Positions 2,457 to 20,602 of a stretch of DNA of 64,000 bases are shown piece after piece; within the stretch, counting starts at the first letter, position 1; every line of letters starts with the position of its first letter. Source of the stretch: Escherichia phage PSD2001; sequence record OK254198.1. One strand, given 5' to 3'. Both the position numbers and the translations under genes were made by a program. The notes under the pieces were generated by a model. The model had not been told where the DNA came from. It saw only the letters and a list, made by a program, of their open reading frames with translations, and made no database searches.

Positions 2457-2714
2457 TCATCTCATGCTCCTATGCCAACAGTTTCTTGGCTCACGTTTAA
2501 AAATTTCATCATGCATTGATTGACAACCAACACAATATATCACGCCTTTAATCGCTTGTCTCCGCGCTTCAGGAATTTTTTCGTCGCAGTCAAAACAGAA
2601 TTCAGCAGACTCCCTTTCAACTGCAACTTGCGCTCTCGCATGGGTGATAGTGGCTTGGACAACCGCTTCCATCTCTAACTGTTCAGCACCATCTTTTGCA
2701 AATCCAACAGCCAT
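2457..2714 (-). CDS. TraR/DksA-family C4 zinc-finger protein
   Basis: 85 aa; 'CFDCDEKIPEARRQAIKGVIYCVGCQ' = CxxC-x17-CxxC with EARR spacing typical of TraR/DksA zinc fingers. Confidence 0.6.
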   Translation of the reverse strand: MAVGFAKDGAEQLEMEAVVQATITHARAQVAVERESAEFCFDCDEKIPEARRQAIKGVIYCVGCQSMHDEIFKREPRNCWHRSMR

Positions 2715-2896
2715 TATTCTTTCAACTCATTCAGATACTCAACCAAGGCTGCTTTAGAGTTAGCCAAATCTCGTTTACACTGTTCTATTCCAGAATATGA
2801 ATAACCTTCACAATATTCAACAGCCAGGTCATTGGATGCATTTTCAATGTGCCAGGCGAGTTTGATAATTTTTTCAATCTGTTCAGTAGTTAACAT
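2714..2896 (-). CDS. Hypothetical small protein
   Basis: 60 aa ORF, start/stop abutting neighbours. Confidence 0.45.
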   Translation of the reverse strand: MLTTEQIEKIIKLAWHIENASNDLAVEYCEGYSYSGIEQCKRDLANSKAALVEYLNELKE

Positions 2897-2900
2897 AATA

Positions 2901-3137
2901 TCACCAGTATTTTTTGATGATAGAAATTAATTCTTGGACTTGAGTGTTCTTCAGCTTGCACCCACAACCCTTTAAGGTGTCTTTAAGGAGCCATGGTTCC
3001 TTGAGCTCATCCTTTTCCAGGCGAATTCTATATCCTCTGTAATCAGCAAATATGCTTCCGTCATCAAATATCTTAATTTCAAGAATATGATTATTGGTTT
3101 CATATTCCAATGAAACCATGGTATTTGTAAGTTTCAT
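2901..3137 (-). CDS. Hypothetical small protein
   Basis: 78 aa ORF. Confidence 0.5.
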   Translation of the reverse strand: MKLTNTMVSLEYETNNHILEIKIFDDGSIFADYRGYRIRLEKDELKEPWLLKDTLKGCGCKLKNTQVQELISIIKKYW

Positions 3138-3340
3138 TATTCCACCACATATGATAATGAGAAAATTGCTGATGAAAGATGGGTAGCATCTTCTTCACAC
3201 AGTTCAAATGGAGCTTTCTGTAAGAGTTCAACCACTTCTTCATCAGTGGCACTGTCCATAAAGATTGCATAATCATTAAGATAGATAACAACCTCATCAC
3301 CAGTATTAACTGCATCAATCTTGATATTTTTAATTCTCAT
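3137..3340 (-). CDS. Hypothetical small acidic protein
   Basis: 67 aa ORF immediately downstream of a PeSS-like promoter with SD GAGGAG. Confidence 0.5.
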   Translation of the reverse strand: MRIKNIKIDAVNTGDEVVIYLNDYAIFMDSATDEEVVELLQKAPFELCEEDATHLSSAIFSLSYVVE

Positions 3341-3347
3341 TGTGTTC

Positions 3348-3398
3348 TCCTCAGTAGTTGATGGGATAATAGTACACCCTTTTTATGGTGTTGTAAAC
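3348..3398 (-). promoter_or_regulatory. PeSS-like early promoter cassette (-35 GTTTACA, -10 TACTAT, TATCCCATCAACTACTGAGGAG arm)
   Basis: Minus-strand read GTTTACA-17nt-TACTAT-TATCCCATCAACTACTGAGGAG; shares the GATGGGATA/TATCCCATC module with other copies. Confidence 0.55.
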
Positions 3399-3440
3399 CC
3401 CTAAATGAAAAAAGGTCCACCCGAAGGCAGACCTTTTGAA

Positions 3441-3824
3441 TTACTCTAATGTTAACAGATACTTAGTCTGAAAGAAAACTCCAACGATATCGTCCAGAGT
3501 CGATTGAATAGCCTTGGGTACAACTTTATAGACTCTTTCCGAGCTTTTAATCATTTCATCTAAAAACAAAATTGTATCTTTCGGCAAGTCCGAGGCGGAC
3601 GGTAATGCAGCTTTGTATTGTTTCCCGCTGTAACCTAACCATTGCTCACTGAACTGGTCGAGTGGACCTTGGATTTCTGTGAAGTAGAAATCATAAGCTT
3701 TATGGCGGGCGTAACTTTTGGTTTCAAGATGGGCGGACTTAAAATAAGCCAAAGAGACTAACAACCACCCAATATATGAATCCACCTCAGACCCACGACC
3801 CGTTACGAAATCATCAAATTTCAT
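3441..3824 (-). CDS. Hypothetical protein (position of T4 rI.-1)
   Basis: 127 aa ORF directly downstream of rI-like gene. Confidence 0.55.
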   Translation of the reverse strand: MKFDDFVTGRGSEVDSYIGWLLVSLAYFKSAHLETKSYARHKAYDFYFTEIQGPLDQFSEQWLGYSGKQYKAALPSASDLPKDTILFLDEMIKSSERVYKVVPKAIQSTLDDIVGVFFQTKYLLTLE

Positions 3825-4107
3825 CTTCCAATTTTACCTTCATTAATTTAGCGTACTCGACTGCAGCAGCCCGGCCATCAATTTGACATGTGATTTCATT
3901 TACACATTGACTCTTATTGTTCCATTCAGTTTTAATAAAAGCCCAAAATTGTTCGGACTGCTCGACGCTGGGTTCTTTGAATTGCGAATAGATTTGCATC
4001 GCACTATCTGCATACTGGGTAAATTTACCATCTGTAGCAGAGGACATATTTGGGCCTAAACAGCCCATTAGTAATAGACTTAGAGAAAGTCCTCGAATAA
4101 GGTCCAT
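3814..4107 (-). CDS. rI: Lysis-inhibition regulator RI-like (antiholin), signal-anchored
   Basis: 97 aa from internal ATG with SD AAGGAG; hydrophobic N-term; C-terminal 'SVEQSEQFWAF...EYAKLMKVKLE' resembles T4 RI as recalled; sits next to tk as in T4. Confidence 0.7.
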   Translation of the reverse strand: MDLIRGLSLSLLLMGCLGPNMSSATDGKFTQYADSAMQIYSQFKEPSVEQSEQFWAFIKTEWNNKSQCVNEITCQIDGRAAAVEYAKLMKVKLEDEI

Positions 4108-5426: not shown

Positions 5427-5635
5427 AACCATTGCACCTTTAAACAATATTCATCTACGTGTTGGACACGTTTGTTTTTGTCAATAAAAGTATATTCAAC
5501 ATACTCGCCGATATACCACTTATCTACATTGTGAGGACTTTTTATAGGACACTTGGTTACCCGTGTTTCGGACCAGTGTCGAATAATTGTAGCTTTATTT
5601 TTAGGGTCAAACGGATGTGGGTAATGTGCTTTCAT
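5423..5635 (-). CDS. Hypothetical protein
   Basis: 70 aa ORF, overlaps neighbours by a few nt. Confidence 0.5.
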   Translation of the reverse strand: MKAHYPHPFDPKNKATIIRHWSETRVTKCPIKSPHNVDKWYIGEYVEYTFIDKNKRVQHVDEYCLKVQWL

Positions 5636-6086
5636 AATCCACCACTATCAAATCAATATCAGGAGTAAACATATCAATTAACCGGGAAACCTTATCCCAA
5701 TCACCACCTGCAATACCACATCCAATCCTGGGAATATAAATCACGGGCTTGAACAAAAGTGATTCTGCTTGTCGATTTAATTCTATCATGCAATTTACTA
5801 AAGCGCCATAATCCAGATTTGGACCCGGTTCATACTGTGTATAAAGGTTATAGCACATACCAAATCCAGTTGGCTTATGTTTAAAAACGATAGACATATC
5901 ACCGAGTTTTTCTCGGGAACCGTATTCAGTTGATGTCTTATCCATTTCTAAAATTTTTGGGTAAGCCTTTGCCAGTTGGCCAGCGACGCCTGAACCCATT
6001 GTGTGAAAGCAGTTGCAACCATGTGCAATAATATTGCCTTGAAGAAAGAGGGCGACGATATCGCCCTTAATATAGTTAACAATCAT
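5607..6086 (-). CDS. Macro-domain protein (putative ADP-ribose binding/processing)
   Basis: 159 aa; 'GDIVA...AHGCNCFHTMGSGVAGQLAKAYP' and 'IPRIGCGIAGGDW' match the two glycine-rich macro-domain motifs. Confidence 0.65.
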   Translation of the reverse strand: MIVNYIKGDIVALFLQGNIIAHGCNCFHTMGSGVAGQLAKAYPKILEMDKTSTEYGSREKLGDMSIVFKHKPTGFGMCYNLYTQYEPGPNLDYGALVNCMIELNRQAESLLFKPVIYIPRIGCGIAGGDWDKVSRLIDMFTPDIDLIVVDYESTLPTSV

Positions 6087-6442
6087 TTAGAGTTCAATCC
6101 TCTGTTATAGGAATCGACTAACCTGTCCACCATACTGGTGCAGGCCGCCTTATATTTTGCACTTGATAAAATGCAATCCATTTCAAATAATTTCTTTTCA
6201 TATTTGTTGGATAATACATTCTTTTTCAAAAGCGTATGTTCAACATCATTTTGACCATCTTTATAGGCTGCGGTGAGCTTGGCACTGAACTGGATTATAC
6301 AATCCACATTGCTTGCTGCACAATAATCTTTAGCCGTCCTCGTTGCATATTCTATGATGCTGTTGTTGTCGTCGCTCTGTACTGAAGCTATTCCTCCCAT
6401 GCTGAATACTAACCCTATGGCTAAAGTGATAACTCTTACCAT
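6083..6442 (-). CDS. Hypothetical secreted protein
   Basis: 119 aa; N-terminal signal peptide 'MVRVITLAIGLVFSMGGIASVQS'; four Cys. Confidence 0.55.
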   Translation of the reverse strand: MVRVITLAIGLVFSMGGIASVQSDDNNSIIEYATRTAKDYCAASNVDCIIQFSAKLTAAYKDGQNDVEHTLLKKNVLSNKYEKKLFEMDCILSSAKYKAACTSMVDRLVDSYNRGLNSK

Positions 6443-6444
6443 TT

Positions 6445-6987
6445 TTAATCCACCGTTTTTAATAGGCCTCGTGATTTTAAGTAGTTAGCTTTTTCTAGGA
6501 CCTGTGAAGCATACTTATTACCAGCTTTCACATTCCACCCTGCGTTATATGATGATAGTGTTTTCCTTATATCCCCCTTATGAATATTCAACCAGTATGA
6601 AAGCTCAATATAAGCCCAGCGTGCACTGTTCTCTCTCTTGCTTATCATCTTGATTATTTCTTTATCTGTCATTGTCCACCCAACCTGTTTCACGCGTTCG
6701 CGGACGGTTGGAAGATAATTTTGGAATATACCATATGCGTGATGCTTATCTTTATTTAATCCAGTATTAACCCCAGCAGAACTTTCCTGCCAGGTTAAAC
6801 CAGCCATGATATATCCCAAACCATTATGTTGGTGCGGATTTTCTTTGTACTTACCATTTTTCTGGAACTGTTCTCCAAACGCATAAGCATATTGGAGGTT
6901 CTCCATTTGTTCATTACTGAAAGTAGGCTCTACGCTATGGGCAGACATACTAACTGTCAATAGTAAGGTGGCGATTACTTTTTTCAT
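6445..6987 (-). CDS. Secreted lytic transglycosylase-like protein (SLT/lysozyme-like domain)
   Basis: 180 aa; signal peptide 'MKKVIATLLLTVSMSAHS'; 'TWQESSAG...AYGIFQ' matches SLT catalytic E-S ... A-x-G-hh-Q motif. Confidence 0.65.
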   Translation of the reverse strand: MKKVIATLLLTVSMSAHSVEPTFSNEQMENLQYAYAFGEQFQKNGKYKENPHQHNGLGYIMAGLTWQESSAGVNTGLNKDKHHAYGIFQNYLPTVRERVKQVGWTMTDKEIIKMISKRENSARWAYIELSYWLNIHKGDIRKTLSSYNAGWNVKAGNKYASQVLEKANYLKSRGLLKTVD

Positions 6988-6997
6988 GAATTCCCCA

Positions 6998-7456
6998 TTA
7001 GATATAAATCACTTTTGTGCTAATTTTTCCTTCCAGACGATTAGAGTTAACAAACGCCATACGGCAACACATGGTCGGAGACTTCCCAGGAAGAGCTGGG
7101 TTAACTGTCATTCCTAACCATAGGTTCTTGTCTGTGATTTCCAGACGAAGTGGACGATAGTTCACATTCGGGTCAATTTGTGCTTCAACTTCCGGGAGTG
7201 GTTTCATCTCCAGGAATTCAACGATTTCTTTTACATGTGGTGTGATTTTTCCAAACAAATCAAAAACATATTGTTCATCAATTTCACGTTGGATTGCACG
7301 GTCCAACAGGTGTGGACTGTACTTAATGAAGAATGCTTCAAGGCCTGCTTCTTTACAAGCCTTGTTGATAGCATTATTAATTTTGAGGAACTCCGTTTCA
7401 AAAATGCGACGAAGTTTATTGCGGCGAATGTAAACACTTGAATCGATAGTAGTCAT
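6998..7456 (-). CDS. regB: RegB-like endoribonuclease
   Basis: 152 aa from ATG with SD AAGGAG; 'IRRNKLRRIFETEF...KYSPHLLDRAIQREIDEQYVFDLF...LRLEITDKNLWLG' closely parallels T4 RegB as recalled. Confidence 0.85.
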   Translation of the reverse strand: MTTIDSSVYIRRNKLRRIFETEFLKINNAINKACKEAGLEAFFIKYSPHLLDRAIQREIDEQYVFDLFGKITPHVKEIVEFLEMKPLPEVEAQIDPNVNYRPLRLEITDKNLWLGMTVNPALPGKSPTMCCRMAFVNSNRLEGKISTKVIYI

Positions 7457-7461
7457 GATTA

Positions 7462-7512
7462 TCTCCTTTTGTTTGATGGGATAATCATAACTCATTTCAA
7501 TCTGCTTGTACA

Positions 7513-7514
<2 letters not shown>
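7462..7514 (-). promoter_or_regulatory. PeSS-like early promoter (-35 GTGTACA, -10 TATGAT, TATCCCATC arm)
   Basis: Minus-strand read GTGTACAAGCAGATTGAAATGAGTTATGATTATCCCATCAAAC upstream of regB start. Confidence 0.55.
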
Positions 7515-10760: not shown

Positions 10761-11252
10761 TTATTTGTATGCGCTAAAAGTTCCGGTACGGAACGTTTCT
10801 ATAACTCGTTTGGCTCGGTTCGGAGTCTGGACTTTATACCATCTCGAGTCAGCCAGTTCCTTGGCGGCGGCTTCCCACGATTTGGCCTTCAACAATCGCA
10901 TACCCTTAGGAAAACCAGCAACACCAGCAACACCCATCTGGAATACCATATTAATGAGTGCACAACGACGAACTTCATCTAGCACATCATAAACAGGTTT
11001 TAAGACAGGGTGTCTCAAGATTCCGGCTTTAGCTTTTTCGACCGAACGGTTAAACAATGTTTCAGCTTCGTGCTGGGTTATGCGACCATTACAGACGCGA
11101 CCCATGAGCTTGTCGAGCTCGGCACGAGCAACATCTTTTGATGGGTTCTTAGTTATCAGTTGCCCGATACCAATGGTCCAATAGCCTTCAGTATCTTTAT
11201 ACAAATCCAACTTACAACCTTCATCTATACGTAACATTTCGAATATATTCAT
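10761..11252 (-). CDS. e: Endolysin (T4 lysozyme family)
   Basis: '[35 protein letters not shown]...' matches T4 lysozyme incl. catalytic E11/D20/T26 context. Confidence 0.97.
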
Positions 11253-19739: not shown

Positions 19740-19815
19740 TGGTACCTCTAGAAGGACTCGAACCCTCACCTTTAACCTTAGAACGATTATATGCTATCCG
19801 TTACACTATAGAGGC
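19740..19815 (-). tRNA. tRNA-Arg (anticodon TCT), CCA encoded
   Basis: Manual fold: acceptor GCCTCTA/TAGAGGT (one G-U), D-arm, anticodon stem TAATC/GGTTA with loop GTTCTAA, T-arm GAGGG-TTCGAGT-CCTTC, then ACCA. Confidence 0.8.
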
Positions 19816-20492: not shown

Positions 20493-20500
20493 TATTTATA
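20493..20500 (-). promoter_or_regulatory. Late-promoter TATAAATA upstream of the tRNA-region nuclease gene, followed by an SD-sequestering hairpin
   Basis: Minus strand TATAAATA-CTCCTATACTTAATAGGAG-ATTTTTG-ATG; SD AGGAG is in the 3' arm. Confidence 0.5.
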
Positions 20501-20527: not shown

Positions 20528-20602
20528 TGACCCAGACCAGATTTGAACTGGTAACCTTTCCCTTATGAGGGGACTGCTGCTAACCAATTGAGCTACAGGG
20601 CC
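20528..20602 (-). tRNA. tRNA with anticodon CAT (Met or Ile2)
   Basis: Manual fold: acceptor GGCCCTG, anticodon loop CTCATAA, perfect T-arm ACCAG-TTCAAAT-CTGGT; one acceptor mismatch and a 3-bp D-stem. Confidence 0.7.

Follow-up and report, generated by a model that had tools for sequence, protein, structure and literature searches.

Why does the early region of Escherichia phage PSD2001 (sequence record OK254198.1), a T4-like phage with its own cytoplasmic-type lysozyme, encode two adjacent proteins that both begin like secreted ones? The question arises from two minus-strand open reading frames (ORFs) in the 64,000-nucleotide (nt) stretch of this genome analysed here, henceforth the window: 6445..6987 encodes 180 amino acids (aa) and 6083..6442 encodes 119 aa, stop codons included in both ranges. 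A first-pass annotation, made from the letters alone, had given precisely these boundaries without naming the strand, had called the first product a secreted SLT-type lytic transglycosylase and the second another secreted protein with cysteines, and had considered such a pair unexpected. This last point does not stand: both genes have long carried names in T4, vs.1 and vs, and a marginal SLT match of vs.1 has been in print since 2006 (PMC1524935), so that the finding itself is already known. The earlier reading is partly supported, being largely right but about known genes and a published domain assignment. With a probability of about 0.72, we read vs.1 and vs as a conserved module of two exported proteins orthologous to those of T4; the main item of interest is the conflict between the sequence features of Vs and its textbook role.

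The surrounding 2.1 kb of DNA shares ~95% identity with Shigella phage SP18, with Escherichia phages VR7, VR25 and VR26, and with their relatives. The order tk.4-vs-vs.1-regB is that of SP18 and VR7 and matches T4 (tk - tk.2/3 - tk.4 - vs - vs.1 - regB - vs.3 ... denV - e). PHROG profiles placed the 180-aa protein in phrog_600 (Vs.1; E 1e-67) and the 119-aa protein in phrog_1256 ("valyl tRNA synthetase modifier"; E 1.3e-32). Because gene order, profile assignments and the flanking tk.4 and regB genes agree, the two ORFs are, as judged by sequence, the orthologues of T4 vs.1 and vs. T4 Vs.1 (UniProt P13311, Y06E_BPT4) is 66% identical to the window copy over its full length and shares its position between regB and vs, its signal peptide and its motifs, differing in sequence divergence only; T4 Vs (UniProt P13310), encoded at the same genomic position as the 119-aa protein, is 46% identical to it. 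Proteins that are 100% identical occur in other sequenced phages (Vs.1 in P896, Vs in ECML-359), and window Vs.1 is 99–100% identical to proteins from SP18/VR7-like phages.

Predicted export signals on both proteins

Both N-termini show the pattern of Sec substrates cleaved by signal peptidase I (SPase I), namely a positive n-region, an h-region of 7–15 residues and small residues at positions –3 and –1. Vs.1 begins with MKKVIATLLLTVSMSAHS, followed by VEP, which parses into MKK, the 11-residue hydrophobic core VIATLLLTVSM and SAHS before V, with A-x-S at –3/–1. Its best 9-residue Kyte-Doolittle window scores 2.74 at residue 4, compared with a maximum of 1.48 elsewhere. Vs begins with MVRVITLAIGLVFSMGGIASVQS, followed by DD (n-region MVR, core VITLAIGLVFSMGGI, then ASVQS before D), and its best window, again at residue 4, scores 2.86 versus 1.39 in the remainder of the protein. 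The T4 proteins carry the same feature, MRKALLAGLLAISMMAHS before SEH in Vs.1 and MTKILVLCIGLISFSASASA before DTS in Vs, with predicted mature N-termini at S19 (SEHTFSNVQLDNMR) and D21 (DTSYTEIR), respectively.

Conservation of this pattern argues for its being a signal. It was found in 42 of 42 Vs.1 orthologues and in all 28 full-length sequences among 30 Vs proteins, the other two being N-terminally truncated. The N-termini invariably comprise one to three Lys/Arg residues, then a hydrophobic stretch free of charges and, at the aligned position, a small-x-small site, with residue identity drifting freely; a pattern that is kept while its residues drift is the mode in which signal peptides evolve, unlike a segment buried in a fold. 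Among the full-length remote relatives of Vs.1, 109 of 129 likewise had a signal pattern or N-terminal hydrophobic segment. In an AlphaFold2 model of Vs.1, the predicted local distance difference test (pLDDT) score exceeds 90 in the domain, compared with 60–65 for the signal peptide.

Shine-Dalgarno-like sequences precede both long start codons (Table 1), whereas none precedes the internal Met codons chosen in the RefSeq annotation of SP18, whose records (vs 6584–6901, vs.1 6946–7449) comprise 105 aa for vs and 167 aa for vs.1. Similarly, vs.1 of Acinetobacter phage Ac42 is annotated from an internal Met (2582–3019, 145 aa), although longer in-frame starts are conserved. RefSeq start codons that are too short thus constitute a recurrent annotation error through which the signal peptides are lost. 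For the window proteins, a lipoprotein reading was rejected for want of a lipobox, as was Tat export for want of a twin-arginine motif. We therefore infer, from the N-terminal pattern and its retention, that Vs.1 and Vs are Sec-exported and cleaved, in agreement with the signal peptides claimed in the first-pass annotation.

Vs and its cytoplasmic label

The annotation of vs in every record examined is "valyl-tRNA synthetase modifier", an identity that had escaped the first-pass annotation, which was nonetheless right to describe a secreted-type protein containing cysteines. Window Vs has Cys at positions 41, 48, 90 and 101; all four are conserved in orthologues and kept across genera down to 20% identity, and closer orthologues also share the invariant C-terminus SMVDRLVDSYNRGL. 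AlphaFold2 models Vs as a four-helix bundle (residues 24–40, 46–69, 74–90 and 95–116; pLDDT 77) in which the Cys pairs 41/48 and 90/101 flank two hairpin turns, a topology suggestive of the disulfides Cys41-Cys48 and Cys90-Cys101. In divergent members from Ac42, RB43, Krischvirus E26, Jiaodavirus UTI-K4 and Serratia phage PS2, nothing but this architecture is retained (a signal, C-x5-10-C, C-x8-10-C and a final G-L), and all of them match phrog_1256. One lineage (loci L040–L044 and L059, at ~3549–3875) has a lipobox, MKKLFVLLVVFALSGC followed by K (LSGC), in place of the SPase I site; at L044, this lipobox-type vs is split by a frameshift. Our searches retrieved no structural or sequence relative of Vs with a known function, and neither fold nor sequence resembled the Ivy, PliC/MliC, PliG or Spackle inhibitor families.

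The documented function of the orthologous T4 Vs is cytoplasmic, whereas these features point to the periplasm, where the protein could not bind cytoplasmic valyl-tRNA synthetase in vivo. Taken at face value, the label would make Vs a cytoplasmic tau factor that binds the host synthetase and is unrelated to Vs.1, with an N-terminus that is not or only partly exported and an adjacency of purely historical origin. The predicted mature T4 Vs, at 11.0 kDa, would be close in size to the purified tau factor, a protein of ~10 kDa. Besides the uniform annotation, classical biochemistry speaks for this role (cited in PMC8076793), as does a transposon screen in which vs was the T4 gene most depleted in minimal medium (M9 glucose) and a vs knockout plaqued poorly. 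The authors of that screen explained the defect via translation and nutrient supply, and called the role of synthetase modification unknown. We nevertheless regard the cytoplasmic role as unlikely. The signal peptides are canonical in all full-length orthologues and give way to a lipobox in one lineage; four conserved Cys placed to staple helix hairpins would be unusual in the cytoplasm; vs is strictly syntenic with the gene of an exported enzyme; and N-terminally His-tagged, full-length T4 Vs went into inclusion bodies in the E. coli cytoplasm (PMC8076793). Signal peptide, lipobox variant and the two predicted disulfides all argue against a cytoplasmic location, as far as sequence and model can tell.

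The synteny was quantified in 79 IMG/VR loci containing Vs.1 relatives, 53 of them with at least 40% Vs.1 identity and 26 more distant, by filtering for ORFs of 85–140 aa with a signal peptide and exactly four mature Cys in a C...C/C...C pattern. Exactly one such Vs-like ORF, always beginning at the end of vs.1, was present in 51 of the 53 closer loci; in the two exceptions, an internally deleted or frameshifted vs lies next to an intact vs.1. One of these is phage vB_EcoM_005 (locus L014, 3541–3798), where an internal deletion leaves 85 aa and removes two of the four Cys. Unless this deletion is an artefact of sequencing, phages tolerate vs.1 in the absence of a functional Vs. The vs gene also directly follows vs.1 in Ac42, E26, UTI-K4 and PS2, and is found two genes further downstream in RB43. 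In the window, the vs ATG lies 2 nt beyond the vs.1 stop codon (6445..6447) and the vs Shine-Dalgarno-like sequence falls inside vs.1, while the two genes overlap by 8 nt in T4 and by 4 nt in Ac42; this spacing is consistent with coupled expression. In several phages, vs is followed by the gene for a third signal-peptide protein (130–139 aa; mature N-terminus WEKLPGYP or WETVAPN), for instance in Ac42 (3330–3743), UTI-K4 (2863–3255) and locus L044 (3873–4292), at the position held by tk.4 in the window.

Vs.1 as a predicted single-domain transglycosylase

The SLT residues noted in the first-pass annotation (E-S ... AYGIFQ) are indeed present in Vs.1, as WQE68S69S and A84-Y-G-I-F-Q89, and belong to a full set of motifs as defined in the Blackburn and Clarke classification: motif I (W66-Q-E68-S69-S70), motif II (G86-I-F-Q89), motif III (S146-Y147-N148-A-G150) and motif IV (Y159). 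Invariant among the 42 orthologues are E68, S69, G86, Q89, N90, Y147, N148, G150 and Y159. All of these except Q89 and N90 remain invariant across Straboviridae plus Kuttervirus S118, a Felixounavirus and a vibriophage, and E68 and S69 are so in all alignments, distant homologues included; Q89 and N90 are >90% conserved in the wider homologue set, the vibriophage homologue being different.

Pfam SLT was matched by 32 of the 32 Vs.1 orthologues tested (best E 1.3e-7), several of which also carry a precomputed PF01464 hit. The AlphaFold2 model, built from 42 sequences, reached a mean pLDDT of 85, with low values only at the signal peptide and in one loop. It adopts the alpha-helical goose-lysozyme/SLT fold, with E68 just past helix 58–66, and its best structural matches are lytic transglycosylases. 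In weak profile matches to goose-type lysozymes, E68 coincides with their catalytic Glu region (RESRAG). A profile comparison with e lysozyme gave no relation, and NCBIfam no meaningful match for either Vs.1 or Vs. The precursor has a mass of 20.6 kDa; the predicted mature form has 162 aa, 18.7 kDa, an isoelectric point of 9.5 and no Cys. Given this fold and these motifs, Glu68 would be the catalytic residue of a transglycosylase. The assignment agrees with Nolan et al. (2006), who saw vs.1 match SLT marginally but consistently across six T4-like genomes and referred to previous PSI-BLAST work (PMC1524935), as well as with the name "Transglycosylase SLT domain-containing protein" given to Vs.1 in UniRef and some GenBank records. 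In the searchable literature, we found no discussion of the Vs.1 signal peptide.

The family is broad. Searches with tblastn retrieved Vs.1 homologues from 2083 phage records (Straboviridae of many hosts, Ackermannviridae, Felixounavirus and others), and among 1.84 billion representative proteins, a profile search detected 474 Vs.1 clusters, nearly all of single-domain proteins of 160–200 aa, the few named members of which derive from Caudoviricetes contigs. On this distribution, small secreted SLT proteins are common accessories of large virulent phages that infect Gram-negative bacteria. In Cronobacter phage S13 (1969–3151 of the locus) and at locus L065 (2917–4215), the homologue has alc on one side and, directly downstream, an i-spanin/o-spanin pair and then pseT; this arrangement, which resembles a lysis cassette, is absent from the window and T4. 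Moreover, rI is found three genes past the vs.1-vs cluster in Ac42 and ~2 kb away in T4. Members of the Vs.1 family have thus repeatedly been placed among envelope and lysis genes in relatives. The first-pass annotation had listed cell-wall remodelling, superinfection control and lysis modulation as candidate roles; the linkage lends mild support to an envelope- or lysis-related one.

Such neighbours, and the fact that secreted and signal-anchor-release (SAR) endolysins are an established class of muralytic enzymes with N-terminal export signals, could indicate that Vs.1 is a lysis protein proper, acting as an endolysin alongside e. Several observations make this quite improbable. SAR segments are weakly hydrophobic stretches of ~16–20 or more residues, rich in Gly, Ala and Ser and devoid of a cleavage site, and are encoded in late lysis cassettes; the Vs.1 core of ~11 residues followed by A-x-S is instead a short cleavable signal. 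Early-region expression, as the first-pass annotation had proposed, is borne out, both genes belonging to a prereplicative transcription unit: on the minus strand of the window, the late-promoter motif TATAAATA does not occur between 4187 and 20492, and time-resolved omics class the mRNAs of T4 vs.1 and vs as early and their proteins as middle, both proteins being detected by mass spectrometry, without their termini being given (PMC9697503 supplements). The window also encodes an e-type lysozyme that lacks a signal peptide, again as previously noted (Table 1). In the T4 transposon study HIDEN-SEQ, e was essential (mean count 2.5), whereas vs.1 (46 of 52 TA sites hit) and vs (30 of 32) were non-essential; Vs.1 is therefore not the endolysin and cannot replace it. 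T4 e mutants fail to lyse, and with e being essential, this means that Vs.1 alone cannot destroy the sacculus. Very improbable, finally, is a GH23 fold without lytic transglycosylase activity, be it a goose-type muramidase or a catalytically weak peptidoglycan binder: both chemistries occur in GH23 and a second acidic residue, E128, is invariant, but Vs.1 has all four motifs of family-1 lytic transglycosylases in full, the closest structures are themselves lytic transglycosylases, and the loop following E68, the site of second acidic residues in g-type lysozymes, is variable in the alignment and holds no conserved Asp, which favours transglycosylation over hydrolysis.

Coordinates of the two genes, their sequence elements and neighbouring genes are compiled in Table 1. 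The T4 orthologue of the downstream neighbour, tk.4, protects against DarTG2 and has recently been named AdfM (Humolli et al. 2025 preprint, bioRxiv 10.1101/2025.11.20.689424). A GC-rich stable hairpin at 6049..6067 on the minus strand (GGGCGAUAUCGUCGCCC, then CUUUCUU; –15.4 kcal/mol, z –2.1), 16 nt past the vs stop codon and within the start of tk.4, may act in RNA stability or as a partial terminator. An Rfam scan revealed no RNA family in or near vs.1 and vs, and plus-strand ORFs across the region were all of at most 49 aa, none with support. Promoter-like sites were no commoner than in shuffled sequences (14 vs. 15.3), and hence we claim no promoter. In the whole window, TATAAATA was observed 19 times (5.2 expected), with all matches on the minus strand left of ~27.4 kb and all on the plus strand right of ~37.3 kb, a switch that marks the transition from the leftward prereplicative region to the rightward late genes. 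One exact match on the minus strand (20493..20500) lies between Rfam tRNA genes at 19743..19815 and 20528..20602 (minus strand).

Table 1. Positions of the vs.1 and vs genes, their predicted elements and context genes in the window
Feature	Position	Strand	Remarks
vs.1 coding sequence (180 aa + stop)	6445..6987	-	precursor; predicted periplasmic single-domain SLT/GH23 lytic transglycosylase
Vs.1 signal peptide MKKVIATLLLTVSMSAHS, codons 1–18	6934..6987	-	predicted Sec/SPase I; cleavage predicted before V19
Glu68 codon (WQESS)	6784..6786	-	predicted catalytic acid/base; invariant in 42 orthologues and distant homologues
Shine-Dalgarno-like GGGGA for vs.1	6992..6996	-	4 nt before ATG; supports the long start including the signal peptide
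vs coding sequence (119 aa + stop)	6083..6442	-	precursor; predicted exported four-helix two-disulfide protein, ~10.8 kDa mature
Vs signal peptide MVRVITLAIGLVFSMGGIASVQS, codons 1–23	6374..6442	-	predicted; cleavage after A19, S20 or S23
Shine-Dalgarno-like GGTGGA for vs	6449..6454	-	within the last vs.1 codons
tk.4, macro domain, downstream neighbour	5607..6086	-	Pfam Macro E 1.5e-8; 4-nt overlap with vs stop; context, outside the module
regB, endoribonuclease, upstream neighbour	6998..7513	-	Pfam REGB_T4 E 5.7e-72; context only
e-type lysozyme without signal peptide	10761..11252	-	67% identical to T4 lysozyme

A proposed module for the periplasm

Fitness data from T4 bear on whether the two proteins act together. 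Mean HIDEN-SEQ insertion counts for vs.1 and vs were 75.7 and 103.3, 15.0 and 33.9, and 22.6 and 26.6 in three control sets, compared with 180–650 for the flanking tk.4, regB and vs.3; in Extended Data Table 6 of that study, insertions in both genes are 3- to 40-fold below those in flanking non-essential genes in control libraries. This amounts to a mild fitness cost shared by vs.1 and vs insertions, on which the HIDEN-SEQ paper does not comment, with polarity of vs.1 insertions on vs being a possible alternative cause. In one of the comparisons tabulated by that study, vs.1 was significantly depleted (log2 fold change –1.20, q 0.015). Similar under-representation of the two genes fits one shared process better than an enzyme and its antidote. 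A role of Vs as an obligatory immunity protein against Vs.1 is weakened by this similarity, and likewise by the occurrence of distant Vs.1 relatives without Vs and by the two loci with a damaged vs.

We propose the following course of events. Vs.1 would be made as a precursor from prereplicative mRNA, exported by Sec and probably cut by SPase I after Ser18, releasing into the periplasm of the infected cell a basic single-domain family-1 (SLT/GH23) lytic transglycosylase. There, Glu68 would cleave MurNAc-beta-1,4-GlcNAc bonds (between N-acetylmuramic acid and N-acetylglucosamine) of the sacculus, making Vs.1 an accessory wall remodeller, with the cytoplasmic e lysozyme remaining the endolysin. 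Vs, translated from its start 2 nt past the vs.1 stop and likewise exported, would fold as a bundle of ~10.8 kDa stapled by two disulfides and work in the periplasm too, most probably alongside Vs.1 in one process, as its partner or regulator. Our best estimate of that process is a non-lethal, controlled cutting of glycan strands during the latent period, which may be linked to the control of lysis or lysis inhibition, or to envelope maintenance in slow-growing hosts. Candidate purposes are the timing or inhibition of lysis, upkeep of the envelope while the host grows slowly, and protection against external attack.

Known systems offer partial parallels. EtgA of the type III system of enteropathogenic E. 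coli and VirB1/IpgF-type enzymes are also single-domain lytic transglycosylases, with ~15% sequence identity to Vs.1; unlike these, Vs.1 has no associated secretion machine and is phage-encoded and made early in infection. EtgA is localised or activated by EscI; we know of no such partner of Vs.1. Slt70, Slt, MltC, MltE and MltF possess extra domains (such as the superhelical ring of Slt70 and the ABC-like module of MltF) and lipid anchors, both of which the soluble minimal domain of Vs.1 lacks. T4 Spackle (gp61.3), a small helical early protein with a signal peptide and a phage muralytic enzyme as its periplasmic target, is a functional analogy only. Adjacency to spanin genes brings some Vs.1 homologues close to secreted and SAR endolysins, from which Vs.1 differs by its short cleavable signal, its early expression and its dispensability for T4 lysis.

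Several points weigh against an exported module and account for our reserve. The case for export of either protein is built on a sequence pattern and its conservation. Window Vs.1 itself scores 14.9 bits against Pfam SLT PF01464, below the gathering score of 21.3, and profile searches of PDB sequences returned no significant hit. Across all queries against PDB chains (the individual proteins plus three family profiles), the matches were chance ones, to metacaspase, IAPP, dynein light chain and CP12, or goose-lysozyme alignments below threshold. The searchable literature reports no muralytic activity for any Vs.1 family member. None of the 26 distant Vs.1 loci, which lie outside the T4-like clade, has a Vs-like neighbour, and together with the two damaged vs genes this implies that Vs.1 does not strictly require Vs. 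Genes are closely spaced throughout this region, so that the spacing is weak evidence of a functional pair. Lastly, the assignment of Vs as a binder of cytoplasmic valyl-tRNA synthetase is experimental and long-standing.

If the exported module is real, an exported minimal transglycosylase with no known role is conserved in more than 2000 sequenced virulent phages that infect Gram-negative hosts, and its strictly co-located partner in T4-like phages has a sequence that contradicts its textbook function. Tentatively, and as a possibility that we hold to be less than even, Vs, for fifty years the "valyl-tRNA synthetase modifier", may be a periplasmic, disulfide-bonded and in some phages lipid-anchored partner of Vs.1 in a wall-remodelling module for slow-growing hosts, with the link to the synthetase arising from mis-assignment of ORFs in the tk-regB interval or from binding that takes place only after cell breakage. 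A periplasmic Vs offers an alternative hypothesis for the need for vs in minimal medium: if true, a module important in slow growth would explain the minimal-medium defect of vs mutants.

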